The notes: generated from the sequence alone by a model not told the origin. Positions 4,814-26,910 are shown, numbered from the stretch's first letter. The stretch: DNA of 42,267 nucleotides from a bacterium (GCA_046757025.1 JBHHXN010000026.1:1-42267); one strand, 5' to 3'. A program made the numbers and translations.

Positions 4814-4836
4814 TGTAAATAAACAGAATAGGTGCA

Positions 4837-8527: not shown

Positions 8528-8598
8528 GAACGGGCTCTTCAAAATTCAGTTTTTCGATTTTGAACGTAAAATCCTGGTTTGTGAATAATACAAGTTAA

Positions 8599-9696
8599 TT
8601 ATTGATTGACCAATTGCAAAACCGAAGACCTCTCAACAAGATGAGATTTGAGTACTATCTTTTGAGGGGCGATGGATTCACCCTTTATGCGTGCCATGAT
8701 CAATTTCATGCTTTCCTGGCCCATTTCGTAAATTGGCTGGTGCATGGTCGTCAAAGCCGTGGGATGCGAATTGATGAACGGTAGATCGTCGTATCCCACC
8801 AAAGAAATATCATCGGGAATGGAAAGGCCCATCTCATGTGCCTCTGAGTAAAACAAGTAGGCAATGCGGTCGTTGCCGGTAAAAACGGCGGTTATGTCAC
8901 CTGCCTTGCGTAAGATAGTGCGCACGGACTCCCGGAAATGTTTCTCGACATACGGCGTTTTATCCGCGATGACGATGGACGAGTCAATTGGGATGCCATG
9001 TTTTTCCAGAGCATATTTGTAACCCGCAAGCCGTTTGGCTTCGGTGTTGTACAAACGGCTCAAGACCACCGCTATTTTTCTGTGACCGTTTCGGATGAGA
9101 TAGTCCGTCACTTCGTAACCGCCATCGAAATTGTTGGTGGTAACGAAGTCGCTCTGCGTTTGGGGAATTTCCCTATCCGCAATGACGACCTGGATATTAT
9201 TTCGGGTGAATTTTTCCAAAATCGTTCTATTCTGATCGTCGGTGGATGCGGTAGGTACAAAAATCACCCCGCTGACGTGATGTTCGATGAGGCGTTCCGC
9301 GTGAAAATCCGCTCTAACATACGAATCGTCTGTGTTGCACAAAATGAGGCTGTGTTTGTTTTTGGCGGCTTCATCGCCGGCCCCGCGCGCCAGCTCCGGC
9401 GCATACCCACTGCGGATGTCCGGTACCAGTACCCCCACGATAGTCTGCTTTTCCCGATTCTCTTCGCGATTGATGACAAAGGTACCCAGCCGCCGCTGAC
9501 GCGACAGGTAACCCAAATTTACCAGGTTCTGAACCGCCTGACGAATGGTGGCCCGGGCTAAACCGGTCATTTGTACTAATTCCTCTTCAGTGGGAATTTT
9601 CTCGTTCGGTTTGATGACGCCCTTTTCGATCTGCTCGATCAACCAGGTTTGCAGTTGAAAATACTGGGGAATGGGACTGTTTTTATCGATGATCAT
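8599..9696 (-). CDS. GntR-wHTH / LacI-type sugar-binding chimeric transcriptional regulator (AraR-like); probable inositol-locus regulator
   Basis: N-terminal PQYFQL...KIPTEEEL...RATIRQA...GTFV (GntR); C-terminal periplasmic-binding fold with GHRKIA, RLAGY, NDRIA, ISLVGYDD and LTTMHQP. Confidence 0.9.
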   Translation of the reverse strand: MIIDKNSPIPQYFQLQTWLIEQIEKGVIKPNEKIPTEEELVQMTGLARATIRQAVQNLVNLGYLSRQRRLGTFVINREENREKQTIVGVLVPDIRSGYAPELARGAGDEAAKNKHSLILCNTDDSYVRADFHAERLIEHHVSGVIFVPTASTDDQNRTILEKFTRNNIQVVIADREIPQTQSDFVTTNNFDGGYEVTDYLIRNGHRKIAVVLSRLYNTEAKRLAGYKYALEKHGIPIDSSIVIADKTPYVEKHFRESVRTILRKAGDITAVFTGNDRIAYLFYSEAHEMGLSIPDDISLVGYDDLPFINSHPTALTTMHQPIYEMGQESMKLIMARIKGESIAPQKIVLKSHLVERSSVLQLVNQ

Positions 9697-11069: not shown

Positions 11070-11468
11070 TCACTTTAGAATCTTTTCCACTTCTTCAGCC
11101 AATTCAAAAGGTAAATAATCTTCTTTTCTGAAAAAGTTACAATTGTCTTCTTTACGAAATCGTTGCAGCAACTGGTAATCAGAAACATTAGTCAGAATGA
11201 TCACAGGTAAATCGGGAGCAGCTTTTCTTATTCTTTCAAAAAAATGCACACCCGTCCGCAATCCTTCACGTGTATCCACCTTTTTAAAAATCGACCCGGG
11301 CGGCATCATGATATCTAAAATGAGAAGATCAATGCCATCTACGTTATTCTCAAAAAAGTGCCAGGCTTCATCCACATTTTTTTGAAAAACTACTTTATAA
11401 CCGCACAACTCCAGCTCTTTAGCGTAACTATCCATCTCCCTTTTTTCATCATCAAGGAAGAGTATCAT
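11070..11468 (-). CDS. Stand-alone response-regulator receiver domain
   Basis: ILFLDDE, LLILDIMMP (phospho-acceptor Asp), IILTN and FFRK; no output domain; overlaps the kinase stop by 17 nt. Confidence 0.9.
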   Translation of the reverse strand: MILFLDDEKREMDSYAKELELCGYKVVFQKNVDEAWHFFENNVDGIDLLILDIMMPPGSIFKKVDTREGLRTGVHFFERIRKAAPDLPVIILTNVSDYQLLQRFRKEDNCNFFRKEDYLPFELAEEVEKILK

Positions 11469-14226
11469 GAGGAACCTCCTTCAGTCTCTTGGGTATTATT
11501 ACCTGAAATTCCGTTGGTTTACTATTATTAGTAAGGACCAAATCTCCACCAAATTCTCTCATAATTTTTCTGGAAATGGTGAGTCCCAATCCCGAACCAG
11601 CCACGTTTTTGCTTTTAGCTTCTGGAGAACGAAACCCACTTTCAAAAATTTTCTTTTCCAATCCTTTTCGTATGCCTATCCCCCAATCTCTGAACTTAAT
11701 AACAATAGAATTTTTAGTTAATTCCGCATAAATTTCAATTTTAAACTTCGACGGCTCCCTCTCCGCGTATTTAATAGAATTAATCAGTAAATTATAAATA
11801 ACCTGATTGAATTTCGCTTTGTCAATATATAATATATCAATTTTGCGGATATCTGCCGGGTTGATCAAAATATTTGACGCATCAAATCCATCGTGTAAAA
11901 CAATTGGCTTTAACTGATTAATAGTTTTGATAATCACATCCCGGAATACGAGCGTTTTTTCAAATTTGGAAATGGGCGAAGGTCTGCCGAGGGCGTATTC
12001 CAAATCCTTGACTTGATGCAAAAGTAACTCGCAATCAGTGAGAATATCATCAAATTTTAGACGAATCAAAGCCGTTTCCAAATCATTGATGCGTCTTTGC
12101 AGAAAACTGGCATTACTCCTGATTCCGACAATCGCAGCCCTGAACTCATGACTGATTCGATCTATGAGTCCGCGTTGCCTTTGCTTTAAAGCCATAACCG
12201 TATAATCGACAAAACCCTGTAAAATTTGAATATCCTGCTCGTAAATAAATTCCCGGCTGTTTCTCTGATAACCCGCTTCAACCGTTCCAATCACTTGCTC
12301 ATTCGAAGAGTCGAGCATGGGAATAAATACCCGCAACAACTGGTCGCGGTTAAAGCGTTTTTGTATTTTGGGATCGAATCGTTTATCATCATTCGCGGGC
12401 ACTTCAATGTTTCGGGTTCGAACGATATCGGCCTGAATATTATCGCTATCCAGTGGATGATCGGCTAATTTTTTAAATGCTTCTACCTGGTTCTTGGGAA
12501 ATCCGAAAACGTATTCCGACTTAATGCAATTGAGCTCTGAATTCACCAAGGAGATATTGACATACTCATAGCCAAGGGTATCGGTAATCGCTTTTTGAAC
12601 GATTTCAAAGATATCATCCCAATCCTGCTTGCCAACAATTTCCTTTTGAATTTGAGCTAATTTAGTTAACTTACGATCAAATTCCAATCTTTCAATACGG
12701 ATGGCGGCATGGCGGGTAAGTGACCAGAGTATGTCCACATCGGCTTGTGAAAATGCCCGCTCCGTGGTACTTTCAATATTGAACACGCCAATCGTTTTGG
12801 TGCCGTATTTAATTTCCGTACCGACGCGCACCTCCGCTTTGTTGATCAAGATGGGGACCGCTAATTCGGAACGCGTGTCGGGCCAAAATTCTTCATATAT
12901 TTCTTTCCACTCGGGGCTTTTGACATTATCTACTTTAATGGGCTGCTCTTCCCGAAGCGTTTTGCCGGTAATTCCCAGCTCAATATTTAATGTGCGTAAA
13001 TTCGGTGGATTATCTCGATGGGCTAAGATATTCAATTGATTGGTCTTAAAATCTAAGGTGCTGATCCAGCCTCTTTTGCATCCGATGAGTTCCAGGCCTC
13101 TGTCGAGCAACAACTCCAAAAGTTTATCGGTTTGGCGCACCTCGGACATTTCCTGCATGATTTCATTGAGCTTTTCAAGCCGTTTGCGACTGGTGATATC
13201 CTCGGCCTTTTGAATCGACAAAGCCGCATAGTTGGCAAACGAACAAAAGACCTCCTTTTCCCATTCTTTGAAGTATCGTTTGGTTTTAGTATAAACATCC
13301 AGCATGCCGATGAGTTTGGTGGCCACCCGCATCGGCGCGCTTAGCAACGAAACCCAGCCTCTTTCTTTTGCTTCTTTACCATGCCCATAATTAGGATTGT
13401 CTTTGGTAACATCGGCCAGATAAGATACCTTCTTTTTTAAGTGTTGCTGAACACCGGAGGCATTTAAATCGAGCTCTATCCTTTTGAAATTTGCATCTAC
13501 ATTGCCTGTAGCCGATACGATCTTTAATTTCTCCTGCTTCTCATCTAACTTCCATACGATGCAAATTGGCACATCCAGTAATTCACAGGCCTTATTTGAA
13601 ACTTGCTGAAGAAAATCTCGTGGAGAACTCAAAAGTAGATTTTGTGAAATGGCGTTTAAAATGCTCGAGGATCGTTCAAGCAAGCGATAGTGCTCAAATC
13701 TTTCGATGGTGATGACTGCCTGATGAGCAAAAATCTGCAAAAGTTTTTTATCATTGCCGGTGAACCAGTTTGATTCAGGTGAAAAATGATTCAATCGTCC
13801 GATTAGCCGATCATTTGACATCAATGGACAGCTTAAAACAGAATCCAAATTATATTTTTTGGCGACCCTAGGATTCGCCACTCCCTGTCCATTTTTCTTT
13901 AATTTATTGATAACGATTGTATCATTTATTGCAAATTTTTCAAAATCCAGAATTTCTCCATTTTTTTCTAAACCCAGCTTTATTTTTTTCCCTGAAACCC
14001 GTTTCTCATACTCCTCGTCGAAACCAACACAGGCGACTTGCGTAAGATATTTGTTTTCAATATCCACAAATGTGAGGGTGCAAGCATAAGAATCCAAAGC
14101 ATCCTTACTGATTTCACAGATTCTCTTCAGAGCCTCTTTTCTGTTTTTATATTGCAGAGGTACTTCACTCAAGGCATTGAGCGAATTGATCAGATCAGGC
14201 CTGAGCCCCAGTCCAATTCTTAACAC
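11452..14226 (-). CDS. Soluble sensor histidine kinase with about 4 tandem GAF domains
   Basis: Repeated GAF signatures (SVLSCPL..IGRLN, SLLSAPM..LIGMLDV, SELAVPI..IGVFNI, VFIPM..VIGTVE); H-box SHEFR, N-box NLLINSIKY, DWGIGI and GSGLGL; no TM segments. Confidence 0.9.
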   Translation of the reverse strand: MLRIGLGLRPDLINSLNALSEVPLQYKNRKEALKRICEISKDALDSYACTLTFVDIENKYLTQVACVGFDEEYEKRVSGKKIKLGLEKNGEILDFEKFAINDTIVINKLKKNGQGVANPRVAKKYNLDSVLSCPLMSNDRLIGRLNHFSPESNWFTGNDKKLLQIFAHQAVITIERFEHYRLLERSSSILNAISQNLLLSSPRDFLQQVSNKACELLDVPICIVWKLDEKQEKLKIVSATGNVDANFKRIELDLNASGVQQHLKKKVSYLADVTKDNPNYGHGKEAKERGWVSLLSAPMRVATKLIGMLDVYTKTKRYFKEWEKEVFCSFANYAALSIQKAEDITSRKRLEKLNEIMQEMSEVRQTDKLLELLLDRGLELIGCKRGWISTLDFKTNQLNILAHRDNPPNLRTLNIELGITGKTLREEQPIKVDNVKSPEWKEIYEEFWPDTRSELAVPILINKAEVRVGTEIKYGTKTIGVFNIESTTERAFSQADVDILWSLTRHAAIRIERLEFDRKLTKLAQIQKEIVGKQDWDDIFEIVQKAITDTLGYEYVNISLVNSELNCIKSEYVFGFPKNQVEAFKKLADHPLDSDNIQADIVRTRNIEVPANDDKRFDPKIQKRFNRDQLLRVFIPMLDSSNEQVIGTVEAGYQRNSREFIYEQDIQILQGFVDYTVMALKQRQRGLIDRISHEFRAAIVGIRSNASFLQRRINDLETALIRLKFDDILTDCELLLHQVKDLEYALGRPSPISKFEKTLVFRDVIIKTINQLKPIVLHDGFDASNILINPADIRKIDILYIDKAKFNQVIYNLLINSIKYAEREPSKFKIEIYAELTKNSIVIKFRDWGIGIRKGLEKKIFESGFRSPEAKSKNVAGSGLGLTISRKIMREFGGDLVLTNNSKPTEFQVIIPKRLKEVPHDTLP

Positions 14227-14318
14227 AATAAGTCTCGCTAAATTTTATTGGTTTTAATTTTATTCTAAGAGTCTTAAATACAGTTGATTACAAGCGATTC
14301 ATCATCCGCGATTTTATT

Positions 14319-14378
14319 GGTGTTCAAACTTCAGCTTGCTTGGATTGTTAGAAAGGAACACGCTAAAGCGTGAACACC
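14319..14378. repeat. REP-like doublet, same family as 8482-8527
   Basis: GGTGTTCAAACTTCAGCTTG ... CACGCTAAAGCGTGAACACC. Confidence 0.75.
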
Positions 14379-14615
14379 GACGGTTTAAAAATCACGCCAA
14401 AGATCCGTCTGCTCAAGTTAAAATCGCAGATTTCAGATTCCAGTAATTAAATAATTTAACGATGAAATAGGTTCCCATTTCAGGGCAACGTAGTTCAAGA
14501 GAATACACAGCCCGTCGTGCTTTGATTTTTAAATCAGTGGAAAAGGGGACATAAATCTTTCCGGATTAGCGGTTGCCACCGAAATATTCTAAATATTGTT
14601 ACCGACACTAATTAC

Positions 14616-14644
14616 AATATGCAAAATTAAGGAAGGCTTGTCAA
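14616..14644 (-). promoter_or_regulatory. Candidate sigma70 promoter for the kinase/HNH island
   Basis: Minus strand TTGACA (14644-14639), 17-nt spacer, CATATT (14621-14616); the -10 element is imperfect. Confidence 0.45.
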
Positions 14645-14704
14645 GTTAAATTTTCATTAATAAGATTAAGTATATTCAGCAACTGTATGGAGCAATAAAT
14701 CGGG

Positions 14705-15355
14705 TCATTTAAGCTCTCGCGCCGCAGAAATACTTCGATTCAGCATTTTCGCATTTTCAGTGAGCAAAGAATAATTCTCCTCCTGAATGGCCTGTTTATC
14801 CAGCAAGGCGCTGCCCACGCCCACGGCACAAGCGCCGGCCCGCAGCCAGTCACCGGCATTGGTCAGGGAAACGCCGCCGGTCGGCATCAGTTTCAGATGC
14901 GGCAGCGGGGCTTTCACCGCCTTAAAGAACGCCATACCCAGTACATCCGCGGGAAAGACTTTGACGATATCCGCTCCCGCTTCATGCGCCAGTTGAATTT
15001 CCGTGGGAGAGAAAGCCCCGGGCAGAGCGGGCACCTCCTGAGCGTGTGCCGCCTGAATGATGGCCGGTTTGAAAATGGGACTCACCACAAATTGCGCCCC
15101 GGCGTCGATGGCCTGGCGGGCGGTGTCTGCGTTCAGCACCGAGCCCACGCCCACCAAAACAATCTCACCCATAGCCCGGGCCAATTCCTCGATGGCCTCC
15201 AGGGCATTGGGCGTGGTCATGGTGATTTCAAGGGCGGAAATGCCGCCGGCATGAATGGCCTCGGCCACCCGCATGAGCTTCTCAGAGTCGCTCATCCGAA
15301 TGACTGCAACCGCTCCGCTGTCGAGCAAAGATTGCACTATTTTATCCCGTTGCAT
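14705..15355 (-). CDS. eda: KDPG/KHG aldolase
   Basis: VAVIR, LEITMTTP, GAQFVVSP, PTEI, VKVFPA (Schiff-base Lys) and MPTGGV motifs. Confidence 0.93.
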   Translation of the reverse strand: MQRDKIVQSLLDSGAVAVIRMSDSEKLMRVAEAIHAGGISALEITMTTPNALEAIEELARAMGEIVLVGVGSVLNADTARQAIDAGAQFVVSPIFKPAIIQAAHAQEVPALPGAFSPTEIQLAHEAGADIVKVFPADVLGMAFFKAVKAPLPHLKLMPTGGVSLTNAGDWLRAGACAVGVGSALLDKQAIQEENYSLLTENAKMLNRSISAARELK

Positions 15356-15397
15356 GGTTTTTCTGACCTCACAAGTAAGTGATTTTCTCTGACAGCT

Positions 15398-16483
15398 TCA
15401 TCTTTTGATTCGGGCGGACCCGCCCTTCATGACATGCCTCACTTCATCGAAGGTAACCATGCTGGTATCGCCGCGGGTGCTTTGCAGCAACGCACCGTGT
15501 GCGGCCCCGAGATTCGCGCATTCCTGCGGCGTCATACCATTTACGAAACCGTAAATCATGCCGCTGCAAAAGCCATCGCCGCCGCCCACCCGATCCTCGA
15601 TTTCCAGATTTTCGTAGCGCACCGACTCGTAAAACTGGCCGTCATAAAAAAGAATGGCCGACCAGTTGTTCCGCAATCCGCTCACTACCTCGCGCAAGGT
15701 TGTGCCCACGGCTTGAATATTCGGATACGTTTGCACGACTTCCGACACCATCCTTTTGTAATTTTCCACCGGCAGCGCTTTGAAGCTCTCATCGGTGCCT
15801 TTTACTTCAAATCCCAGCACTTTTTGAAAATCCTCTTCATTGCCGATCAACACGTTGATGTACGGCGCCAGTTGTTTGGTGGTCTGAATGGCCTTTTCGC
15901 TGCTCCACAATTTGCTGCGGAAATTCAAATCATAACTGACCACGGTGCCGGCCTGATGCGCTGCCTGCATGGCTTCTCTGGCCACTTCAGCACAGCCGTC
16001 GCTCAAAGCAGTAAAAATACCCCCGAGGTGAAACCACCGCACCCCGCGCTCGGTAAAAATTCGCTGCCAATCTATTTCTCCGGGCTTCATATTCGCGGCG
16101 GCGGAATGTCCACGGTCGTACATGGTGACGCTGGCGCGCACTCCCATCCCCACTTCGGTGAAATTCAAACCGATGCGATCGGCTTTGCCCACGCCATCGT
16201 ACGGCGCCCAGACCACTTCACTCAGATCCATGCCGCTCGCCCGAGCGTGATTTTGAATGAACCGGCCCAGCGGATTGTCCACCAGCCGTGAAATCCAGCC
16301 CGTGCGCAAACCGTAACGCGAAAGGGCGTACGCCACGTTGTATTCGCCGCCGCCGGCGTAAGCCTCAAAATAAGGAGTTAACTCGATGCGTTGATGCCCG
16401 GGGGGACTCAATCGAATCATGCATTCACCCAACGACAGCAAATCAAGTTCACACTCATTTTTCGCTTTAATTTTTAATGGCAT
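15398..16483 (-). CDS. kdgK: 2-dehydro-3-deoxygluconokinase (PfkB family)
   Basis: GGGEYNVA, YDLNFRSKLW, GNEED and DRVGGGDGF motifs; adjacent to eda. Confidence 0.88.
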   Translation of the reverse strand: MPLKIKAKNECELDLLSLGECMIRLSPPGHQRIELTPYFEAYAGGGEYNVAYALSRYGLRTGWISRLVDNPLGRFIQNHARASGMDLSEVVWAPYDGVGKADRIGLNFTEVGMGVRASVTMYDRGHSAAANMKPGEIDWQRIFTERGVRWFHLGGIFTALSDGCAEVAREAMQAAHQAGTVVSYDLNFRSKLWSSEKAIQTTKQLAPYINVLIGNEEDFQKVLGFEVKGTDESFKALPVENYKRMVSEVVQTYPNIQAVGTTLREVVSGLRNNWSAILFYDGQFYESVRYENLEIEDRVGGGDGFCSGMIYGFVNGMTPQECANLGAAHGALLQSTRGDTSMVTFDEVRHVMKGGSARIKR

Positions 16484-16509
16484 TTCAAACTCTCCTTACG
16501 ATTTATTTT

Positions 16510-17397
16510 TCATGATTTCCATGGCGGAATTTCTGGCAACCTTTTTTCAAATTCCGTTATCAAGTTGCCTTCATAATCCGTATCATATTTTCCATTTAAA
16601 AATTTGTCCGCCCCTTCGTTTAACAGACGTTCCCATGAATCCTCTTCCGCACCGGGATTGACTGGATAAAACCAGGCGCCGTTTGCGCGCGCGGCTTTCA
16701 AGTCGCCGGGGGCGTCGCCGATCATCAACACGCGCTCTTTAGCGTACTTTCCCTCCGCTGCCAGTTGAATATGTTCTTTTTTACTTCCCATTTCCTGGCC
16801 TGCGATGAGACGGGTAAATTGAGTGATATCATGCTCCTGCCACTCCCGGCGCAGGGCTTCCATAGGCGTAGCGGAACAAACCAGAATGTCAGCATTCTGA
16901 GAAAATTTCTCCAGGCATTCTCGCACAAAAGGAAACGGCGGCACACCGTGCACCAGATCAGCCACCGCCGCATTCACCGCCTCACTCCACTGCAGCGTTT
17001 GGGTTAGTACGGCATCGCCGGTCCTTTCCATTTCGGCTTTCAGAGCTGGATTGCCGAGTTTGGATTCCCGCTGAATCCAATCGCGCAGAGGTTGAGCTCG
17101 AGGGACGGTTGCGGAGCGCTTTTGTACTTCCGGCCACTCTTCCAGCAAATCAAACGTTTTGATGAGCGCGGGAAAGCGATTAGTTCCGCGCCATTTCGAA
17201 TAGAGATTCACAAATTCGGCCGCGGCGCGGGCATATTTTGAAATAGGCTGCAATTGCCAGTGTTTAATAATATTCGGGATAAAGCATTCTTTGTGCTTGA
17301 TCTCCATGGAATCAAACACACAACCGTCGGAATCGATGGCTATCAAAAAGTCATGTTTTGGTTGTAGATTTCGTAATTCTGCTTGTGGATCGGACAT
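16510..17397 (-). CDS. HAD-superfamily hydrolase/phosphatase
   Basis: Motif I DSDGC, motif II SAT, motif III K (GSKKEH) and motif IV GDAPGD. Start reassigned to the ATG at 17397 (MSDPQ), just after the stop of the larA-like gene. Confidence 0.85.
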   Translation of the reverse strand: MSDPQAELRNLQPKHDFLIAIDSDGCVFDSMEIKHKECFIPNIIKHWQLQPISKYARAAAEFVNLYSKWRGTNRFPALIKTFDLLEEWPEVQKRSATVPRAQPLRDWIQRESKLGNPALKAEMERTGDAVLTQTLQWSEAVNAAVADLVHGVPPFPFVRECLEKFSQNADILVCSATPMEALRREWQEHDITQFTRLIAGQEMGSKKEHIQLAAEGKYAKERVLMIGDAPGDLKAARANGAWFYPVNPGAEEDSWERLLNEGADKFLNGKYDTDYEGNLITEFEKRLPEIPPWKS

Positions 17398-17404
17398 GCT
17401 TTCT

Positions 17405-18688
17405 TCATTCCTCCTCATTTTTCGTTTTATGAAACGGATCATTTTGCAGGCGGTAAAGCATTTCGCCCGCTTTTGAAACGCACAGGATGCCTTCCTGCTC
17501 TCGATCTCGCCAGCCTTCAATATCAATCGTGTCGGGATCTCGATAACCAAGATGTATTCTTTTGCAGAGGTCTGGCGTAATTTGTGTGGCCAAGACCACT
17601 TCAATACGCGGCTCTTCTCTGCCGTTTTCGAAACGGCCGATTCCCTTCACATGCGTGGAATGCGCCATGACCCCACGGGGAATGTCCGTAAATTTTTCGG
17701 GTTGCATGATAAAATAATCCCGGCAATGGTAGCCAATTTTTTCGATCACAGCGCCATGCGTAACCGAGATTTCCCGAATGTGCGGCGCATAGACGATCAA
17801 CTCACCGCCATCGGCCACCACCGGCTCCAATTTGTAAACACACTTGCCGCCGGTCCAGAGGTCTTCGTACATGGTTGGCGCACAGGAAAGCACTTTCTGA
17901 AAGGGCCGTTCTTTGTAAACGATGTGCAGGTTCCTGGAAAGATCCGCTGCGGCGGACCAAGCTTCTTCCGGCGACCCGAAAAAGAGTCCCGCAAGATCAC
18001 TTCCTTTTACTACCAAACTGAGACACCAGCGGGGCATGGGCAGAAAAGAGGCGGCCTTATCTACCACCTTGCGCACCGGCGTGTGTTTCACCCCGATGAT
18101 TGCGGGACTGGTGATCAACGCGCCCAGCCAGTGAAACATGTGAATAATTTCCGGGCCGGCCAATCCGGGGAAAAAGTATTTGTTGCCGCCAGAAAAGCCC
18201 ACCACTTCATGAGGAAAAGTCGGGCCCACCACCAGCAGCAGGTCGTAGTCGAAAACCAGCTTGTTGATTTTAATTTCCACAGCTTGCCGCATGAGGCCGT
18301 TGGAGAGGTGCGCCACTTCGTCTTCAGAAATGGCGCCCACAGGACGGAGCTGGTCCGGGGCGTCCCACTGGTGGTTAAATATTCGGCTGTTGGCAAATTG
18401 AGTCGAACGTTCGCGCTGGCTGATGCCAAGATGCTGGTTGATGCGCGCCTCGCTCATGGGTGGATGCGTGCCCAGGGCGATGACAAAGTCCAACTTTTTT
18501 GACCGCTTTGCCAACAACTTGTGCACCACTCGAAACATTTTATCCACCGGTGCGGTGCGGGTGTGGTCCGGCAGAACGACCAGAATACGCCTCGCATCGA
18601 AATCGTTTCGCGAAAATGCCTGTTCACATATTTCAATAATTTCCGCATCTGTTAAAATTTTATCTGCGGCGCCTTTTCCGATGACCAT
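17405..18688 (-). CDS. LarA-superfamily nickel-pincer-dependent hydroxyacid epimerase, GntE-like (D-mannonate/D-gluconate 2-epimerase candidate)
   Basis: PDHTR, ALGTH, PHEVVGFSGGNK, FHW, WTGGKCVYKL, YAPHI and IGYHCRDY motifs; lies between gnd and the HAD gene, near a UxuB-like SDR. Confidence 0.8.
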   Translation of the reverse strand: MVIGKGAADKILTDAEIIEICEQAFSRNDFDARRILVVLPDHTRTAPVDKMFRVVHKLLAKRSKKLDFVIALGTHPPMSEARINQHLGISQRERSTQFANSRIFNHQWDAPDQLRPVGAISEDEVAHLSNGLMRQAVEIKINKLVFDYDLLLVVGPTFPHEVVGFSGGNKYFFPGLAGPEIIHMFHWLGALITSPAIIGVKHTPVRKVVDKAASFLPMPRWCLSLVVKGSDLAGLFFGSPEEAWSAAADLSRNLHIVYKERPFQKVLSCAPTMYEDLWTGGKCVYKLEPVVADGGELIVYAPHIREISVTHGAVIEKIGYHCRDYFIMQPEKFTDIPRGVMAHSTHVKGIGRFENGREEPRIEVVLATQITPDLCKRIHLGYRDPDTIDIEGWRDREQEGILCVSKAGEMLYRLQNDPFHKTKNEEE

Positions 18689-18768
18689 TTTTTTGATTTA
18701 ATTTATTTTCAATTTACATTAACCCGACCAGAAAGCCATTGTTTCTTTTATTCATCAGAAAGCATTCG

Positions 18769-20223
18769 TCACACATTGTACGTGGTGGAAGAAGTGGCGC
18801 CCCCTCTGCCGGTCCAGTTGGTATGAAAAAACTGACCACGCGGTTTGTCCACTCGCTCGTACGTATGCGCGCCAAAATAATCGCGTTGAGCCTGCAGCAA
18901 ATTTGCGGGCAAGGTTTCACTGCGATAGCTATCATAATAGGCCAGGGCGCTGCTAAACGCCGGTACCGGGATGCCGGACTCAACCGCCAGCGCCACCACC
19001 CTTCGCCAGGCTTGCTGATTCTTCTCCACCGCATCTTTAAAATAACTACTCAGAAGCAGATTCGGTAAATCCGGCTGCCGATCAAACGCTTCTTTAATAT
19101 TACCCAGAAATTGGGCGCGAATAATGCAGCCACCGCGCCACATCAAAGCGACATCGCCAAAATTCAACCGCCACTGATATTCATTTGCGGCTGCACGCAT
19201 GAGTTGAAACCCCTGAGCGTAAGAACAGATTTTGGAAGCGTACAGTGCCTGACGAATCATCTCCACCGTTTTTTTGCGGTCGCCGCTGAATTTTGTCTCC
19301 GGCCCGTGCAACACCCGAGCCGCCTGCACGCGTTCCTCTTTTAATGCGCTCATAGCTCTGGCAAATACCGCCTCGGCCACAGTCTGTGCGGGAATGCCCA
19401 GATCCAGCGCCGCCTGACTGGTCCACTTGCCTGTGCCTTTCTGGCCGGCCGTATCCAGAATCAGGTGGAGCATGGGTTTACCTGTTTCGTCATCTTTTTT
19501 GGCCATGATGTCGCGGGTAATTTCAATTAAATAGCTGTTGAGCACGCCCTCGTTCCAGTCGGCAAAAACCCGGTACAGGTCGTCCGGGGTCAGGCCCAGG
19601 CCTTTTTCCATCAAAGCGTACGCTTCGCTGATCATCTGCATGTCGCCATATTCGATGCCGTTGTGCACCATTTTCACAAAATGGCCGGCGCCATCGCTGC
19701 CCACCCATTCACAGCAAGGCGTGCCATCATCCACTTTCGCGGCGATGGCCTGAAAGATCGGTTTGACGTGTGGCCAGGCCTCTTCGGAGCCGCCGGGCAT
19801 GATCGACGGCCCGGTCAGGGCGCCTTCTTCCCCTCCCGATACTCCCGTGCCGATGAATAAAAAGCCCTTTTCCTCGAGATATTTGGTCCTGCGAATAGAA
19901 TCGGGAAAGTGACTGTTGCCGCCGTCGATGATGATATCGCCCGGCTCCATGTACGGTAAAAGCAGCTCGATAAAATCGTCCACGGGTTTGCCGGCTTTGA
20001 CCATGAGCATCACTTTACGCGGTTTTTGCAGACTGTCCGCCAACTCCTGAATACTGTGGCAGCCCTTGATTTGCCTGCCTTTCGCTCGGCCATTGATGAA
20101 ATTATCGACTTTGCTGGTGGTGCGATTGTACACAGCCACTGTGAAACCGTGACTTTCCATATTCAATACCAGGTTCTCTCCCATAACTGCCAGCCCGATC
20201 AGGCCGATGTCTTGTTTTTGCAT
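18769..20223 (-). CDS. gnd: 6-phosphogluconate dehydrogenase, decarboxylating (NADP+)
   Basis: [37 protein letters not shown] and QRDYFGAH motifs. Confidence 0.97.
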
Positions 20224-20263
20224 ACTTCATTCTCCTATGTTTAAAATTGAAAAGTCCCTTCCA

Positions 20264-20770
20264 ACACCGAAAGACACTGAATAACACTGAATTAAAGAAT
20301 CATCTTAAATTAGTCCTTCCACCTGAAGCGCATAAAACATGTGAAGGCATTAAAAAGACAAAATTTAAAGCCTGGAATTTAAACAGAAAAATAATTGAAA
20401 AAAATATTTGTTATAAAACTCAGTTTAAAATACAAGTCATGCATATCTATTATATTCTTAACGGCTTAGCGTCTTTGCGGTTAAATTTTATAGTATTACT
20501 TCTGAACTTTTGCATTTTTTTACAAGAAAATGGCTAAATGACGCGAAGTGAATGACACGACCCGTCATAAAGTCATCAGGTCATTTGCCTTTGGCGTCAT
20601 TTTAGACAGCAGCAATAATTCACCTCTGTCAATGACAGCGAGGCTTAATGACGGCTGATAATAGCACCATGGTTTGGACCACAACAAAGCAAGTCATTTA
20701 AACATTTGCGGCTCCGCCGCGCTAGGAATCATGCAGGTGTATTTTTCAGTGTCTTTCAGTGTCCTTCCGT
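20264..20770. repeat. Repeat-rich intergenic segment bounded by inverted 10-bp tandem repeats
   Basis: Left ACACCGAAAG-ACACTGAATA-ACACTGAAT; right TTCAGTGTCT-TTCAGTGTCC-TTCCGT; internal cluster of ATGAC/GTCAT motifs at 20537-20700. Confidence 0.6.
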
Positions 20771-20810
20771 ATTAAATATTCTAATTCAGGTTTCAATCTA
20801 TTACTTTGTT

Positions 20811-21590
20811 CTAAATTGTCATAGCCGAAAAACCGCCGTCCACGCGGATAATAGCCCCCGTCACAAAAGAGGATGCTTTTTCCGCAGCCAACCAGATCGC
20901 TGCGCCCACCAATTCCTCTGGCCGGCCAAAGCGGTGCATGGGCGTGTGTGCGAAAATGGCTTCGGTTCGTTCTTTCGACAGGATTTTACGATTTTGCTCG
21001 GCAGGAAAAAATCCCGGCGTAATAGCGTTTACTCGAATTTTATACGGCGCCCATTCCCGGGCCAGAAACTGCGTGAGATTGTTAACGCCGGCTTTCGATA
21101 TGCTGTACGTAAACACTTTGGACAGCGGCGGCCCAGAAGATGTCGATGAAAGATTGACGATGCTGCCGCCTCTACCCTGCTGCACCAACGTTTCACCGAA
21201 AATCTGACAGGCCAGGAAAATACTCTTTAAATTCACCTCCAAAATGTGGTTCCACTCTTCTTCTGAAATGTCAAAAAAGGCCGTGGATGAATTGATACCC
21301 GCAGCGTTGATGAGCACGTCGATGCCCTGCCACTCAGCGAGAATCTGGTCCCTTGCACGTAGCAAATCATTTTTCTGACTGGCGTCCACCTGAATGGCCA
21401 GGGCCTCGCCTGCCACCGCTTCTTTGATGCGGCTCGCCTGTTTCTCAGCCTTTTCTCGTGTGTGGCTCAAGACCGCTACTTTGGCGCCGGCCCGGGCAAA
21501 ACCTTCGGTCAGAGCGCCGCCAAGCACGCCGCCGCCGCCGATGACTACCGCAATTTTCCCCCGAACGGAAAAAAGTTCTTCAACAAACAT
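20811..21590 (-). CDS. SDR oxidoreductase, UxuB/UxuD-like (fructuronate reductase / D-mannonate oxidoreductase candidate)
   Basis: GGGGVLG, INAAG, YSISK, NAITPGFFPAEQNR and HTPMHRFGRPEEL, resembling SDR-type mannonate oxidoreductases. The ATG at 21590 is preceded by a GAGGTG Shine-Dalgarno sequence. Confidence 0.75.
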   Translation of the reverse strand: MFVEELFSVRGKIAVVIGGGGVLGGALTEGFARAGAKVAVLSHTREKAEKQASRIKEAVAGEALAIQVDASQKNDLLRARDQILAEWQGIDVLINAAGINSSTAFFDISEEEWNHILEVNLKSIFLACQIFGETLVQQGRGGSIVNLSSTSSGPPLSKVFTYSISKAGVNNLTQFLAREWAPYKIRVNAITPGFFPAEQNRKILSKERTEAIFAHTPMHRFGRPEELVGAAIWLAAEKASSFVTGAIIRVDGGFSAMTI

Positions 21591-21825: not shown

Positions 21826-22614
21826 TTAAAATTCCGAATAAATTTTGGCAGCGGAATCTTTATCGAGAAACAGGCGGCAGTCATCATGCAGCCGGGTGAT
21901 GGAAGCCGGACAGGAAGTCGCGATGGGACCTTTCAGCGTCCGGTACACGGCTTCGGTTTTCGTGGGACCGGGCACTACCACAAATACGGCATCTGCAGAC
22001 ATCAAAGCCGGCACGGTCAAGGTTATCGCTTGCTCTGGCACATCGGCCAGCGTAGGAAAACAGCCATCATTTACCTGCTGTTGCCGGCAAACCTTATCCA
22101 ATTCCACTACTTTTACTGTCGCAGTATCGTTGAAATTCGCCACTGGCGGATCGTTGAAGGCGATGTGCCCGTTCTCGCCGATTCCCATGCAAACGATGTC
22201 GATGGGCGCTTCTCCAATGAGATCGCTGTATCGTTCACATTCGGCCTGAACATCTGTGGGTTCGGGATTGATGAAATAGACATTTCGCATGGACACTTTC
22301 TCGAAAATATGCTGCCTTAGATAATGCCCAAAAAGCTGTGACACATTAGCGGGCAAACCAAGATATTCGTCCATGTGAAAAGCCGTGATTCTGGCCCAGT
22401 CTATTTCCGGCGTTTGAGACAGAGCCGCCAGAATGTCATTCTGGGATGGCGCGGCGGCAAACACCATGCGAACATTTTCTTTACTTTTGGACAGAAATCG
22501 TATTCGGTTCGCCACCGCCTCGGCCGCGGCTTTTCCCATTTGTGCACGATTCGGGTGAATTTCAACTTTTAATTTGTCTAAAATAAATTCTTTTAAAGGT
22601 CTCATTTTATTCAT
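21826..22614 (-). CDS. nagB: Glucosamine-6-phosphate deaminase / isomerase family protein
   Basis: FAAAPSQ, FHMDEY, GIGENGHIAFNDP, QQVNDGCF and CPAS motifs; nagA is in the same cluster. Confidence 0.75.
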   Translation of the reverse strand: MNKMRPLKEFILDKLKVEIHPNRAQMGKAAAEAVANRIRFLSKSKENVRMVFAAAPSQNDILAALSQTPEIDWARITAFHMDEYLGLPANVSQLFGHYLRQHIFEKVSMRNVYFINPEPTDVQAECERYSDLIGEAPIDIVCMGIGENGHIAFNDPPVANFNDTATVKVVELDKVCRQQQVNDGCFPTLADVPEQAITLTVPALMSADAVFVVVPGPTKTEAVYRTLKGPIATSCPASITRLHDDCRLFLDKDSAAKIYSEF

Positions 22615-22629: not shown

Positions 22630-23925
22630 TTAAAATCCAAATATTCTCGGAATAATTAAACTCAGAACCGGCATGTAAGTGACAATTAGCAGCACCACAA
22701 TCATGGCAAAGAAAAACGGCAGCAGATGCCGAACGATATTGGTAATGGTGGTGTGGGCAATACCGCAGCCTACAAACAGGCAGGATCCCACCGGCGGTGT
22801 ACACAGACCGATGCACAGATTCATGATCATCAAGATGCCAAAGTGAATCGGGTGCACACCAAGCCCTTGCACGATGGGTAGAAAAATCGGCGTAAAAATG
22901 AGCACCGCCGGCGTCATGTCCATGAAAGTGCCCACAAACAACAACAGCACATTAATGATGAGGAGAATGAGTATTTTATTGTCGGTTAAACTCAGCAATA
23001 CCGCACTGATATCCTGGGGAATATTCTCGAAAGCCATGGCCCAGGACATGGCCATAGAGGTACCGATGAGCAGCATCACCACCGCCGTAGTTATGCCACA
23101 CTGCAAAAGAATTTGCGGAATTTCTTTGAGCTGCACTTCCCGATAAACGAAAACCGAAAGTACAAAGGCATACAAGACTGCAATGGCCGAGGCCTCGGTG
23201 GCGGTAAAGTAACCCGCCAAAATGCCTCCCAAAACCAGCACCACCAGAAACAACGGCGGCAGGGCCACCAGGAATTTCACCAGCCCTTCTTTAAGTCCAA
23301 AAGTCACGCCTTTGCCGTAATTGCGTTTTACCGAGGTGACGCCGCTAACCACCATCAACCCCAGACCCATGAGGATGCCCGGAATAAAACCCGCCAGAAA
23401 AATAGCGGCGATGGAAACCACGCCCCCCGTGGCCAGGGCATACACGATCATGACGTTACTGGGAGGAATCAACAGGCCGGTGGTGGCGGCGGTGATGCTG
23501 ATGGAAGCATTAAAATCACGGTGGTAGCCTTCTTTGTTCATCAGCGGAATCATGAAGCCGCCGACACTGGAAACCGCGGCCACAGCCGAACCAGAAATCG
23601 ATCCAAATAGCATGCAGGTCAAAATGTTCACGTAAGAAAGTCCTCCTCGAAACCGGCCCACCAGGACGTTGGCAAAATCGATGAGCCGGCGGGCAATGCC
23701 GCCGCGGCCCATCAACTGGCCGGCGAGGATGAAAAAAGGAATGGCCAACAGCGTGAAGCTATCGATGCCGGTAGCCATGGTGTGCGCCACCGTTTTCATG
23801 GCGGGGATGCCGCCTATGGTGAGCACGGTTAATAAAGTTGAGATGCCGATGGCAAACGCGATGGGTACATTGAGCATCAATAAAATCACAAAGCTTAAAA
23901 TCAGAACCAGAGTCGGCCAATCCAT
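22630..23925 (-). CDS. dctM: TRAP transporter large permease
   Basis: LLAIPFFILAG, FGSISGSA, LIPPS, TATEAS and GLCTPPVG motifs. Confidence 0.93.
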   Translation of the reverse strand: MDWPTLVLILSFVILLMLNVPIAFAIGISTLLTVLTIGGIPAMKTVAHTMATGIDSFTLLAIPFFILAGQLMGRGGIARRLIDFANVLVGRFRGGLSYVNILTCMLFGSISGSAVAAVSSVGGFMIPLMNKEGYHRDFNASISITAATTGLLIPPSNVMIVYALATGGVVSIAAIFLAGFIPGILMGLGLMVVSGVTSVKRNYGKGVTFGLKEGLVKFLVALPPLFLVVLVLGGILAGYFTATEASAIAVLYAFVLSVFVYREVQLKEIPQILLQCGITTAVVMLLIGTSMAMSWAMAFENIPQDISAVLLSLTDNKILILLIINVLLLFVGTFMDMTPAVLIFTPIFLPIVQGLGVHPIHFGILMIMNLCIGLCTPPVGSCLFVGCGIAHTTITNIVRHLLPFFFAMIVVLLIVTYMPVLSLIIPRIFGF

Positions 23926-24051
23926 GTCAGTTTTCCTTTATTACACGACTATTTGTTCGTTGTTTGAAGTTGAATAAAATCACCATACAATTTAATATCG
24001 AATTCTATTTAGTGCACAGACATTCACTATTGAAACCGAGCAGCCATTATG

Positions 24052-24187
24052 GTCATTCTGAACGAAGAAGCCCTGCCTACGGAGTCGATTTGTTCAGAAA
24101 ACTAACCCACTGCACGAAACACCTCTTCTTTCATTTTCGCAAGTCAGGTGGCAGGAGATTCTTCGTCACTGCGTTCCTCAGAATGAC
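24052..24187. repeat. GTCAT...ATGAC REP-like palindromic element inserted between dctQ and dctM
   Basis: Ends GTCATTCTGA / TCAGAATGAC with internal GAGATTCTTCG; a degenerate second right end (CGCTACGCGCCTCAGAAGGAC) follows at about 24225-24245. Confidence 0.7.
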
Positions 24188-24252
24188 ACTATCCCGGCGA
24201 GATACCGGCGATGGTTACCCGAGTCGCTACGCGCCTCAGAAGGACCATTGAA

Positions 24253-24747
24253 TTAAGTACGACTCAATCTATTCATTTTCAAAATAGTCTCAACAAGAAA
24301 CTCCAAACCGTACATGGCGATAAAAAAACCCGCAATAGGCACCGCCAGATAAACGAATCCCAATTTTAAACCCGTCGCCGGTGCGGTCTGGCCAAGCTGA
24401 AAGGTTTCCGCAACCAATTGAGTTCCTCCCACAAGAAGAACCGAAACCGCAAAAACAATAATACAGGTAAAAACAAAAACTTCGCTCACCAGACGCTTTT
24501 TCTCAGACAATTTCCCAACAAAATAGTCGATACCAAGATGTACCCGGCGGTTCAGGGCCACGGCCGAACCGAGCAGTCCCACCCAGATCAGCAGATACGT
24601 GGCCAACTCCTCGGTCCAACTGCTGGGATTTTTCAGGATAAATCGCGTGACCACCTGCCAGGTCACATCCAGAACCAGCACACCCATGACAAACGCGGTT
24701 AAAAATTCCAGCGCGCGATCCAGCCCCCTTTTCATCGACCTGAACAA
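24253..24747 (-). CDS. dctQ: TRAP transporter small permease
   Basis: 4 TM segments; QVVTRF, WTEELA and HLGID motifs. Confidence 0.92.
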   Translation of the reverse strand: MFRSMKRGLDRALEFLTAFVMGVLVLDVTWQVVTRFILKNPSSWTEELATYLLIWVGLLGSAVALNRRVHLGIDYFVGKLSEKKRLVSEVFVFTCIIVFAVSVLLVGGTQLVAETFQLGQTAPATGLKLGFVYLAVPIAGFFIAMYGLEFLVETILKMNRLSRT

Positions 24748-24749
24748 AT

Positions 24750-25739
24750 CTACTGCTCCGCCTGAATTTCGCGTGCCAAATCCCCGACGACGGTGCCGTC
24801 AAATTCCTGCCACAATTGTTTCGCCAGAGTCTCGAAAGGCGCCTTGTCCGGATGAAACACCCGCAAGCCCGCCGCAGTCATTTTCTCCATGCTTTCATGC
24901 ACAAACGCTTTCCAAAGCTGTCGTTGATACGCCACCGATTCCTCAGCCGCTGCCATCAGCGCGTTTTTATGCCGCTCGGAAAGCTGGTTCCAGACCGCGG
25001 TGTTGATAACCACCACATCCGGCACGCTGGTGTGCTCGTCCAGACTGTAATATTTGCACACTTCATAATGATTGGAAGTGAACAGGCTGGGTTGGTTGTT
25101 TTCGGCGCCGTCCACCACGCCCTGCTGCAAAGAGGTGTACAGCTCACCCCAGGAAATGGGCGTGGGAGAGCCTCCCAGAGCTTCTACCATTTTCATGGCC
25201 ATGGGACTCTGCTGGGTGCGAATTTTTAAGCCCGACAGATCATCCGGATGCAGAATCGGTTTCTTGACGGTGTAAAAGCTGCGCGCGCCGGCGTCGTAGT
25301 AAACCAATCCTTTGAGTTTCAAGCTTTCGCCGGCAGCCAGTATCTTCTTACCGATGTCGCCATTCAGAACCCGCCAGCGGTGGTCCTCATTATTAAACAA
25401 ATAGGGTAGCGCATAAACTTTGTACTCCTCTAAAAAACTTTCCAGCATGCTGCTGGAGACTTTGGTCATGGCGATGGCGCCCAATTGCAATTTTTCCAGA
25501 CACTCTTTTTCGTTGCCGAGCTGCTCATTGGGATAGATTTCGATGACCAGCGTGGAGTCGCTTTTTTCCAGCGCCTTCGCGGCCATAAATTCCATTGCCT
25601 GGTGTACCGGATGAGATGCGGCCAATCCATGCGCCAGTTTTAAGGTGACCACCTCACTTTTAGGCCCGCAGCCAGCGATAAGATAAAGACCTGCAGCTAA
25701 AACTAATAAAGTTAAAATAATTCTTTTAGGTAAATGCAT
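24750..25739 (-). CDS. dctP: TRAP transporter substrate-binding lipoprotein (sugar-acid type)
   Basis: Lipobox IAGC; LKLAH, YPNEQLG, GLKIR, GELYTSLQQGVVDGAENN motifs. Confidence 0.93.
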   Translation of the reverse strand: MHLPKRIILTLLVLAAGLYLIAGCGPKSEVVTLKLAHGLAASHPVHQAMEFMAAKALEKSDSTLVIEIYPNEQLGNEKECLEKLQLGAIAMTKVSSSMLESFLEEYKVYALPYLFNNEDHRWRVLNGDIGKKILAAGESLKLKGLVYYDAGARSFYTVKKPILHPDDLSGLKIRTQQSPMAMKMVEALGGSPTPISWGELYTSLQQGVVDGAENNQPSLFTSNHYEVCKYYSLDEHTSVPDVVVINTAVWNQLSERHKNALMAAAEESVAYQRQLWKAFVHESMEKMTAAGLRVFHPDKAPFETLAKQLWQEFDGTVVGDLAREIQAEQ

Positions 25740-25821
25740 CGGTTCCCTCTCATTTCATTGGATTCTGTGTCGAGTATTTTTTAATTTTAAAGAGATTTGC
25801 TGCACCGGATGTACAACTTTC

Positions 25822-25995
25822 AGACTCTGTGTGAAAAAGAGACAAATCAACTAATACCAAGGATGTCAAAATTGTCATTCCCCGCCTTGCGGGACAAGCT
25901 GGAAGCATTTTTTTAGTAAACAGCACTTTTCGTCCAATCAAAAAGATTTTTCCAAAATGACAGCGCCCCAGTGTTCAACGTTTCGCATAGACTCT
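25822..25995. mobile_element. MITE-like element with imperfect 15-bp TIRs enclosing a GTCAT...ATGAC element
   Basis: Left AGACTCTGTGTGAAA; right TTTCGCATAGACTCT (12/15 match); inner GTCATTCCCCGCCTTGCGGG...AAATGAC at 25874-25961. Confidence 0.55.
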
Positions 25996-26047
25996 TCAGG
26001 TTGTAATTATCACTGACCAGTTAAAATCCGTACCCTCGATATATTTC

Positions 26048-26878
26048 TCATTTCAAAGCCTTCATTTCTACCCCATCCATGTCGGTGAATTCCTGGTTCT
26101 CGCCACCCATGCCCCAGATGAACGCGTAGTTGCTGGTGCCGGCGCCGGCGTGAATGGACCAGCTCGGCGAAACCACGGCCTGGTGATTTTGCATCACCAG
26201 GTGCCGGGTTTCCGCCGGCTCCCCCATCAAATGAAACACGCGCGCATTTTCCTCCAGATCAAAATACATGTAGATTTCCGAGCGCCGGGCATGCGAATGC
26301 GCCGGCATGGTATTCCAGACACTGCCCTCGGCCAGCTCGGTAAATCCCATCACCACCTGACAGCTTTCCACCACGCCCGGACATATTGACTGGAAAATGG
26401 TCCGTTTGTTGGCTTCCGCATCCGAACCCAGCGGCACTCTGTTGGCCTGCTCTCGGGTGATCAGTTTTGCTGGAAACGTTTTGTGAGCTGGAAAACTCAA
26501 CAAGTAGAATTGAGCCGGATTTGATTCGTTTAAACTCGTAAATTCGATTTGTTTGCTGCCGCGTCCAATGTAAAGACTGTCGCGGTTGGCCAGGTTAAAA
26601 TCCTGTCCGTCCACGGTCACGGTTCCGGCCTTGCCAATGTTGATGACCCCGATTTCGCGGCGCTGAGCAAAATAATCGGCGGCCAGGGCTTTTTCCGCTG
26701 GCAGAGTGAGTTTGTTGCTGGTGGGCACGGTTGTGCCCACAATGGCGCGATCCACGTCCACATAGCACAATTGCACTTTTCCGCTCGCAAAAAGCTCCTC
26801 GACCAAAAACGCCTGCCGCAGCTCTTCTGAAGTCATGCGCTGGTATCTAATTTTGTCCGGTAAATATTTTAACTGCAT
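26048..26878 (-). CDS. kduI: 5-dehydro-4-deoxy-D-glucuronate isomerase
   Basis: RREIGVINIG, SCQVVMG, GSVWNTMPAHSHARRSE, SPSWSIH and WGMGGENQ motifs. Confidence 0.95.
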   Translation of the reverse strand: MQLKYLPDKIRYQRMTSEELRQAFLVEELFASGKVQLCYVDVDRAIVGTTVPTSNKLTLPAEKALAADYFAQRREIGVINIGKAGTVTVDGQDFNLANRDSLYIGRGSKQIEFTSLNESNPAQFYLLSFPAHKTFPAKLITREQANRVPLGSDAEANKRTIFQSICPGVVESCQVVMGFTELAEGSVWNTMPAHSHARRSEIYMYFDLEENARVFHLMGEPAETRHLVMQNHQAVVSPSWSIHAGAGTSNYAFIWGMGGENQEFTDMDGVEMKALK

Positions 26879-26910
26879 GTTTTAACTCCTTTTCCAATTC
26901 GAGAAACAAA

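Follow-up and report, generated by a model that had tools for sequence, protein, structure and literature searches.

The 42,267-nt contig JBHHXN010000026.1 of the bacterial assembly GCA_046757025.1, analysed here over its full length (the window), carries a sugar-acid gene cluster at positions 14705-21590. Its LarA-type epimerase is predicted to depend on the nickel-pincer nucleotide, a cofactor whose known synthesis genes were not found in the source genome (G000; 5.96 Mb, 374 contigs, 94.8% complete, the window being contig C26). The cluster consists of six genes, all on the minus strand. The first encodes a short-chain dehydrogenase/reductase (SDR; 20811-21590), a predicted fructuronate reductase of the UxuB/UxaD type, with the D-mannonate oxidoreductase model PRK08277 as its top NCBIfam match (273 bits, under the cut-off of 281) and 1VL8 as its nearest solved structure (E 3e-43); its ATG start was preferred to a GTG at 21599 on the spacing from an AGGAG motif. 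It is followed by gnd (18769-20223), encoding an NADP-dependent 6-phosphogluconate dehydrogenase (TIGR00873, 768 bits, over cut-off) and the sole long-type gnd found by tblastn of the genome. Next come a LarA homologue (17405-18688; PF09861), predicted to be a nickel-pincer-dependent hexonate 2-epimerase of the GntE1/group-19 type, and a 295-residue haloacid dehalogenase (HAD)-family protein (16510-17397) with intact phosphatase motifs and a helical C1-type cap, predicted to be a proofreading phosphatase. A KdgK-like PfkB-family kinase (15398-16483; PF00294) and eda (14705-15355; KDPG/KHG aldolase, TIGR01182, 200 bits, cut-off 156) complete the series. From SDR to eda, the intergenic gaps measure 587, 80, 7, 26 and 42 nt. 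A preliminary description of this stretch had named the same six genes, and we recovered each of them at the place indicated, including the ATG of the HAD gene 7 nt past the stop of the LarA homologue. It had also listed UxuA, UxaC, GntK, LarB, LarC and LarE as missing from the window, and none of these occurs among the 30 window proteins scanned.

The association of these genes was compared in genome loci picked by their LarA homologue (the best 80 of 596), in metagenome loci picked by their HAD gene (the best 80 of 533, many on short contigs), in 121 genomes of the phylum with completeness of at least 88% and in 40 phylum loci. To judge by the source names attached to close homologues, this phylum may be KSB1/Zhuqueibacterota. 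Within 10 kb of the LarA homologue, the genome loci displayed the SDR in 44/80, gnd in 30/80 and the HAD gene in 16/80 cases, while the HAD-anchored metagenome loci held the LarA homologue in 25/80 and gnd in 22/80. The linkage of these genes exceeds chance and is conserved across phyla. The occurrence counts given here and below include related, non-independent genomes and should not be read as significance tests. In several genomes a second SDR, resembling gluconate 5-dehydrogenase or KduD and scoring under the cut-offs, lies between gnd and the epimerase (L013:9155-9979, L220, L222, L223, L225, L227, L233, L239 and L240).

The closest solved relative of the LarA homologue is GntE2 of Thermotoga maritima (4NAR, E 2e-64), and its fold model displays the LarA fold when compared with that structure (TM-score 0.83, E 3e-37). 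In the 4NAR alignment, D41, H75, H160 and K282 are the equivalents of LarA D72, H108, H174 and K298, and R44, K170 and H186 are those of the cofactor-binding residues R75, K184 and H200. The specificity signature of GntE enzymes, as given in the sections consulted of PMC7583248 and PMC11770544, is present as E161-V162 in the loop, W278 in helix 11 and A342-H343 near helix 14. By eye, the motifs agree with those of the group-19 enzymes in Dataset S2 of PMC7583248, including GntE1 (LarAH19) of Corynebacterium glutamicum, which shares the signature residues and has near-identical motifs at the AHSTH stretch, the tryptophan of helix 11 and the catalytic histidine. Group 18 (NF052594) is the best NCBIfam match and hence was our initial reading; it was rejected at 182 bits against a cut-off of 500, where a true member (L106) scores 658. 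Lactate racemase LarA (NF033504) was likewise rejected, at 68 bits against a cut-off of 460 and with E-V in place of F-F/W in the loop. The preliminary description was therefore right that the protein keeps its catalytic and cofactor motifs (D41, R44, H75, H160, K170, H186 and K282) and that it is of the GntE type rather than a lactate racemase. Judged by these residues, it is likely a mannonate/gluconate-type epimerase of the GntE1 group (group 19). GntE1 epimerises mannonate with a KM of 120 mM, and its authors doubt that mannonate is the native substrate (PMC7583248). G000 also encodes a second intact-looking LarA homologue on contig C49 (L008:8800-10089), LarAH10/malate-racemase-like but under cut-offs, which lies amid glycosyltransferase genes with no cofactor genes alongside.

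The nickel-pincer nucleotide is described as a product of LarB, LarE and LarC acting within the cell. The preliminary description had named an absence of larBCE among the grounds for refuting its reading, and our searches of G000 recovered none of the three genes. LarC gave no match, LarB (37 bits, cut-off 175) and LarE (48 bits, cut-off 150) gave weak partial matches only, and profiles built from 16, 11 and 7 lar sequences of the phylum reached at best E 4e-4 in this genome. In relatives, larE-larB-larC forms a single 3-kb block, which in several members of the family precedes a DUF192 gene; in G000 the DUF192 gene is embedded in a contig of 24.5 kb, and the DNA upstream of it is free of lar sequence.

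The same absence was observed in much of the phylum. The group-19 epimerase gene was found in 68/121 genomes (E < 1e-98; 12 weaker or partial matches were tallied separately). Twenty of these 68 carried larB, larC and larE, eight carried larC alone and 40 carried none, leaving 48 without larB and larE, with LarE searched at E 1e-30 in the relatives and at E 1e-3, plus the phylum-sequence profile, in G000. Eleven of the 12 genomes with weaker matches were also without larB, larC and larE. The larBCE-less genomes include G113 (one contig, 100% complete), G112 (three contigs, 98%) and G100 (30 contigs, 100%), and by family, lar genes occurred in 0/4 genomes of f3, 1/16 of f5, 0/7 of f6 and 0/2 of f10. 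When LarB was searched at E 1e-3 in 68 chosen phylum genomes, only two positive controls passed the cut-off; the remaining 66 gave weak partial matches in 59 (at most 51 bits, likely PurE) and none in 7. Meanwhile, 50 control genomes from many phyla, drawn from the best-80 set and of unknown completeness, had larC in 40 and larB in 39 cases (39/46 for larB after removal of four duplicates of phylum genomes).

The epimerase gene is intact and under selection in the genomes without larB and larE. The seven catalytic and cofactor residues are invariant in 37/37 aligned enzymes from such genomes, and the ratio of nonsynonymous to synonymous substitution rates (dN/dS) was 0.034-0.135 in 12/13 larBCE-less pairs (one being saturated), indicating purifying selection; the larBCE-bearing comparison gave 0.064 in the single unsaturated pair of three. 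Since 48/68 phylum genomes with such a gene share the absence, the assignment of the epimerase stands despite it. A cofactor-independent clade of the enzyme was considered and rejected: no alignment column discriminates, and larBCE-plus and -minus enzymes interleave on the tree (102 rows, quick search, four genome loci duplicating phylum genomes left out). A UxuA-family match is absent from 35/48 of the genomes without larB and larE. A selected epimerase in genomes where larBCE was not found implies that the cofactor is salvaged or supplied by some other route, and we give even chances to the uptake of the cofactor, or of a nickel-free precursor, from other organisms. The lone larC of eight epimerase genomes would suit re-metallation of a salvaged precursor.

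Several points weigh against this picture. The UxuA-family match in the other 13/48 genomes may allow the epimerase to be bypassed there. In the family of G000, all four other epimerase genomes have larBCE, and the G000 assembly itself is incomplete and fragmented. No transporter specific to larBCE-less loci was found among the gene clusters common to at least 3/40 loci. Moreover, cofactor-loaded LarA proteins are described as labile in the section consulted of PMC11796402, which would make salvage awkward. Two further observations concern the lar genes. In family f12 (e.g. L327-L331) larC occurs without larB and larE in 10/13 genomes, some of which have no group-19 epimerase. In some family members larE is preceded by the gene for a membrane protein that weakly matches NicO/DsbD_2 and may be a nickel transporter (L317:1994-2734 and L319:10592-11269).

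The remaining gene content of G000 narrows the fate of mannonate. Adjoining uxaE and uxaC genes were found on contig C59, and zwf and tkt are also present. We did not find uxuA in this genome, nor edd/ilvD, uxaA or uxaB (tblastn with the E. coli proteins as queries), nor ManD or gluconate dehydratase; two full matches to enolase-family mannonate/gluconate dehydratases proved to be MenC-like and dipeptide-epimerase-like and were rejected. The best score for thermoresistant GntK was 23 bits (TIGR01313, cut-off 114), and the gene for the one FGGY kinase, outside any sugar-acid context, neighbours an unrelated gene for a membrane protein on a different contig. The absences noted for the window therefore extend to the genome for uxuA and gntK but not for uxaC, which is present with uxaE. 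Lacking uxuA, uxaA/B, edd and ManD, mannonate would have no known exit except the epimerase. KDG (2-keto-3-deoxygluconate) would be obtainable solely via KduI-KduD, the genes of which lie further upstream in the window (26048-29234) and are predicted to supply the kinase and Eda with KDG. Directly upstream of uxaE-uxaC are a GHMP kinase and galU (G000:C59, L007:9839-11747), which could form a glucuronokinase-type salvage pair.

The gene labelled kdgK in the preliminary description does belong to the PfkB/KdgK-like family, but the label holds for the family only, since no curated KdgK model reaches its cut-off (200, 107 and 26 bits against 440, 400 and 400). Its product shares the PfkB fold motifs, is closest over its full length to T. 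maritima KdgK (2AFB, E 9e-69), which is also its nearest solved relative, and is the sole member of its family found in G000. Both proteins are KdgK-like, and this kinase lies beside eda. Unlike T. maritima KdgK, however, the clade of this kinase (identity of at least 78%) is also found immediately after the epimerase or ahead of the HAD gene, and it excludes a phosphofructokinase-like (PFK-like) gene of the pyrophosphate-dependent subfamily (PPi-PFK; PRK14072). In the 160 genome and metagenome loci, the slot behind the epimerase is taken by the PFK-like gene in 25 and by a PfkB kinase in 19, and never by both; the 40 phylum loci gave 14, 14 and 0. Counted by phylum genome (n=121), 23 carry the PFK-like gene and 19 the clade of this kinase; where about 5 genomes with both would be expected, none was seen. 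Of the epimerase genomes, 67/68 have a gene of either the PFK-like or the PfkB kind, compared with 103/121 overall. No PfkB kinase of this family occurs in 14/16 genomes of f5. The slot behind the epimerase is taken by at least four PfkB subclades, and this clade is retained without eda in G099, G102 and G162. The PFK-like partner was not found in G000, which has three ordinary PFKs.

The position of this clade behind the epimerase or before the HAD gene, together with its exclusion of the PFK-like gene, suggests a second substrate. We consider it probable that the PfkB kinase has two roles, carrying out the 6-phosphorylation and phosphorylating KDG in the KduI-KduD-Eda branch, and among the window genes it is a likelier candidate for the GntK step than the HAD. 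Other observations favour a plain KDG kinase. Seven PFK-like genomes hold a separate, more distant PfkB gene, which lies beside eda in at least five. The kinase itself resembles an ordinary KdgK in keeping the motifs shared with 2AFB and in adjoining eda, and it is the only KDG-kinase candidate for the KduI-KduD branch. PfkB and PFK enzymes usually act on ring-form ketoses, not on open-chain aldonates. Finally, as kin are not independent, the counts exceed the number of independent events.

The HAD protein is highly conserved. Its motifs D22-S-D24, S175, K206 and G227-D228..D232 are invariant across 40 homologues, and its fold model (pLDDT 93) displays a large helical C1-type cap after motif I. 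The fold matches are distant C1 HADs (best TM-score about 0.5, 10-16% identity; a wide structural search was not run, and a closer match is possible), no PDB relative was found by sequence at E up to 1, the best NCBIfam score is 22.7 bits, and the Atlas clusters are named generically as HAD. At least 120 homologues share 68% identity or more. The gene is present in 55/121 phylum genomes, and 52 of these 55 also carry a GntE-type gene, which bears out the linkage looked for in the preliminary description. It co-occurs with 22/23 PFK-like genomes and 13/19 genomes of this kinase's clade, and 54/55 HAD genomes carry a PFK-like gene or PfkB kinase. In G099, G100, G101, G102 and G137 it lies directly beside the kinase even far from the epimerase. 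It is also commoner where larBCE are missing (33/40 vs 8/20 genomes).

The proposal that the HAD occupies the GntK slot was not supported by this comparison: because it is missing from 22/68 epimerase genomes and travels with the kinase, sitting behind the PFK-like or PfkB gene, it is probably no GntK substitute. The accompanying suggestion that the KdgK-like kinase may accept gluconate would agree better with the occupancy of the slot. We consider it quite likely that the HAD is a hydrolase clearing a dead-end sugar-acid phosphate and not a phosphotransferase; candidate substrates include 6-phosphomannonate and 4-phosphoerythronate, an inhibitor of Gnd. According to the section consulted of PMC6449344, 4-phosphoerythronate inhibits Gnd in Bacillus subtilis growing on gluconate and is removed by a phosphatase, and Gnd-protecting phosphatases (B. 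subtilis CpgA, yeast Pho13, mammalian PGP) are needed when carbon enters via 6-phosphogluconate. The HAD may act alike, although the searches above gave it no close relative in sequence or structure. A PdxB-like 4-phosphoerythronate dehydrogenase was found in 19/160 of the genome and metagenome loci, from several phyla. Where present it lies beside the epimerase or the HAD gene (e.g. L161:4759-5898), while the G000 orthologue lies apart, on contig C17.

These genes suggest a route whose enzymatic steps we infer from sequence. Sugar acids, likely uronic acids of plant origin, would be imported by a tripartite ATP-independent periplasmic (TRAP) transporter, UxaC/UxaE would yield fructuronate, and the SDR would reduce it to mannonate. 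Nickel-pincer C2 epimerisation and 6-phosphorylation by the PfkB kinase would then convert mannonate into 6-phosphogluconate, which Gnd would turn into ribulose 5-phosphate, entering the pentose phosphate pathway. KduI, KduD, the kinase and Eda would form a side branch, the HAD would act as a proofreader that corrects the kinase product or protects Gnd, and the nickel-pincer cofactor would be obtained by salvage. It is quite likely that the route carries flux when the cofactor is available. The whole explanation, with its SDR-epimerase-kinase-Gnd route, proofreading HAD and salvaged cofactor, is put forward tentatively, at rather less than an even chance. In G143 and G146 (L294, L296), a uxaC-uxaE-SDR-gnd-kinase-HAD operon occurs, and no epimerase, uxuA or eda was found. 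The idea raised by these operons, that Gnd might accept 6-phosphomannonate, was set aside because the two genomes are 90-91% complete and relatives hold a group-18 gene elsewhere.

The route resembles that of T. maritima, whose UxaR operon reads gnd-uxaE-uxaD-gntE-gntK in the section consulted of PMC3750489 and whose GntE2/LarAH20 (4NAR) has its activity reported in PMC7583248. Shared are the grouping of an SDR, a GntE-type epimerase and Gnd, the presence of uxaE and uxaC in the genome, and the fact that the solved structures nearest to this epimerase and SDR are 4NAR and 1VL8. In contrast, the locus described here has a PfkB kinase and a HAD gene and no FGGY-type GntK in context, and its epimerase falls into group 19 and not group 20. 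T. maritima also scored for LarB, LarC and LarE in our control runs and has uxuA; G000 has neither. The T. maritima-like route of the preliminary description is thus retained for the SDR, GntE-type epimerase, gnd and uxaC/uxaE, but not for GntK, for larBCE or for a HAD in the role of GntK. C. glutamicum, the source of GntE1, likewise differs in scoring for LarB and LarC in the controls. In the part consulted of Table S1 of PMC7583248, group-19 neighbourhoods include larB/larE in 33%, and gnd, PfkB kinase and HAD are not listed; the neighbours of group 18 include an SDR, gnd and a ribokinase-family kinase (PfkB), so that such a context has in part been published already, for group 18. Lactobacillus suebicus shares the conversion of uronate via mannonate and 6-phosphogluconate to Gnd with no dehydratase, but its genes for the kinase acting on mannonate and for the 6-phosphomannonate 2-epimerase are not known, gluconate-kinase homologues having been suggested as kinases (both from the section consulted of PMC6978723).

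The order of the two middle steps is about evenly balanced between epimerisation first and phosphorylation first. A full alternative would have the kinase or PFK-like enzyme act on fructuronate or mannonate, with the group-19 homologue serving as a 6-phosphomannonate 2-epimerase and the HAD removing the mis-phosphorylated epimer. The KM of GntE1 for mannonate and the doubts of its authors agree with this, as do the kinase-then-epimerase order demonstrated in L. suebicus extracts (section consulted of PMC6978723) and the membership of the PFK-like counterpart in the PPi-PFK subfamily; fructuronate would also resemble fructose 6-phosphate, with a carboxylate replacing the phosphate. Yet GntE1 and GntE2 epimerise free mannonate in vitro (PMC7583248), and we regard this alternative as doubtful.

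A second alternative replaces salvage by a non-homologous synthesis of the nickel-pincer nucleotide, or by an epimerase whose cofactor pocket takes a less elaborate pyridine nucleotide. It would account for whole families without lar genes, including a one-contig, 100%-complete genome, for an operon kept under selection in genomes of which 35/48 have no UxuA-family match, and for the enrichment of the HAD gene where larBCE are missing. It appears unlikely, as no residue separates the larBCE-plus and -minus enzymes on either the alignment or the tree, the tethering lysine and the nickel histidine are invariant, the search for a divergent LarB at E 1e-3 gave weak partial matches only, and the HAD gene also occurs alongside larBCE. 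Less probable still is the ordinary case, in which larBCE lie in an unassembled gap of G000 or the epimerase is idle and recently orphaned, leaving only KduI-KduD-KdgK-Eda at work. A completeness of 94.8% could hide a single 3-kb block, repeats break many contigs, and the block is present in all four remaining epimerase genomes of this family. However, the family-typical site upstream of the DUF192 gene is assembled, the second LarA homologue is retained intact as well, and this account leaves 47 other genomes unexplained, with larBCE-less pairs reaching a dS of 2 at a dN/dS of about 0.1. HAD-fold enzymes proceed through a phospho-aspartate, and the HAD gene lies 7 nt past the epimerase here, directly behind it in G054, G079, G096, G119, G129 and G130, and is at least 70% conserved across phyla, but a phosphotransferase HAD making 6-phosphogluconate in place of GntK is very improbable given its absence from 22/68 epimerase genomes, the kinase already present in 54/55 HAD genomes and its staying with the kinase when the module splits.

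The preliminary description had presented the cluster as an undescribed variant. The uronate-to-Gnd route itself is published for Thermotoga, while no literature was found on a PfkB, PFK-like or HAD substitute for GntK, nor on LarA enzymes in larBCE-less genomes; Rodionova 2012 (UxaE) and Desguin 2014 were not covered and may bear on both. The sections consulted of PMC11796402 and PMC13524815 discuss the reverse case only, of biosynthesis genes without LarA. The novelty lies mainly in the cofactor gap, which is also the most interesting result: dozens of genomes without detected cofactor genes keep a complete, selected catabolic operon that relies on an enzyme of the LarA type. If the enzymes are active in vivo, the cofactor would be exchanged between organisms, or it would be made or replaced in some different manner. 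The PfkB and PFK-like genes, which exclude each other, are candidates for an unassigned hexonate/ketohexonate kinase, with the HAD as candidate proofreading partner, and a redox-neutral uronate-to-pentose route is of engineering interest. In its widest form, our proposal is that much of the phylum runs uronate catabolism via a nickel-pincer epimerase while lacking the known pathway to its cofactor, which would be either a shared good acquired from neighbours in the manner of a vitamin (as such, or as a nickel-free precursor re-metallated by the lone LarC) or the product of a second, non-homologous pathway, and that the genes still missing from the 6-phosphomannonate route are those of group-19 enzymes and their PfkB/PPi-PFK-like kinases; we place this combination slightly short of even.

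Upstream of the cluster, further genes lie on the minus strand. Next to the SDR lies a NagB/Pgl-family protein, glucosamine-6-phosphate deaminase-like (21826-22614; PF01182, under the NagB cut-offs), followed by dctP-dctQ-dctM (22630-25739), identified by domain scans as a TRAP transporter with predicted sugar-acid uptake; dctP/dctM were seen in 16/40 phylum loci. Beyond it are kduI (26048-26878; PRK00924, 415 bits, over cut-off) and kduD (28455-29234; TIGR01832, 359 bits, over cut-off), with a DUF4861 gene between them (26911-28194). In L221 (G079) and family f3, kduI and kduD lie in the operon, and eda was not found in any of the four family genomes. Further upstream (30437-42101), domain scans identified glycan-degrading genes, namely GH88, GH20-like, GH28 and a GH2 beta-glucuronidase, and two transporters.

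Much of the 587-nt gap between SDR and gnd is filled by a 240-bp AT-rich, non-coding multicopy element (20488-20727, no strand assigned) that lies outside the pathway. Nineteen copies of at least 225 nt and at least 95% identity occur among its 77 matches in G000, along with many partial copies of about 50 nt. No terminal inverted repeat was found, and the element resembles a non-autonomous mobile element. The gaps 25740-26047, 23926-24252 and 14227-14704 hold older dispersed repeats with 45, 25 and 7 further matches, respectively, at about 72-86% identity. A separate inositol-related cluster occupies positions 1031-9696 of the window; it encodes an IolM-type dehydrogenase (over cut-off), a GntR/LacI hybrid regulator, an MFS phosphate-ester transporter, a PfkB kinase, a phytase-like protein and a sugar ABC transporter. 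Between both sugar clusters, a three-GAF histidine kinase and a response regulator lie in lower-GC-looking DNA (11070-14226).

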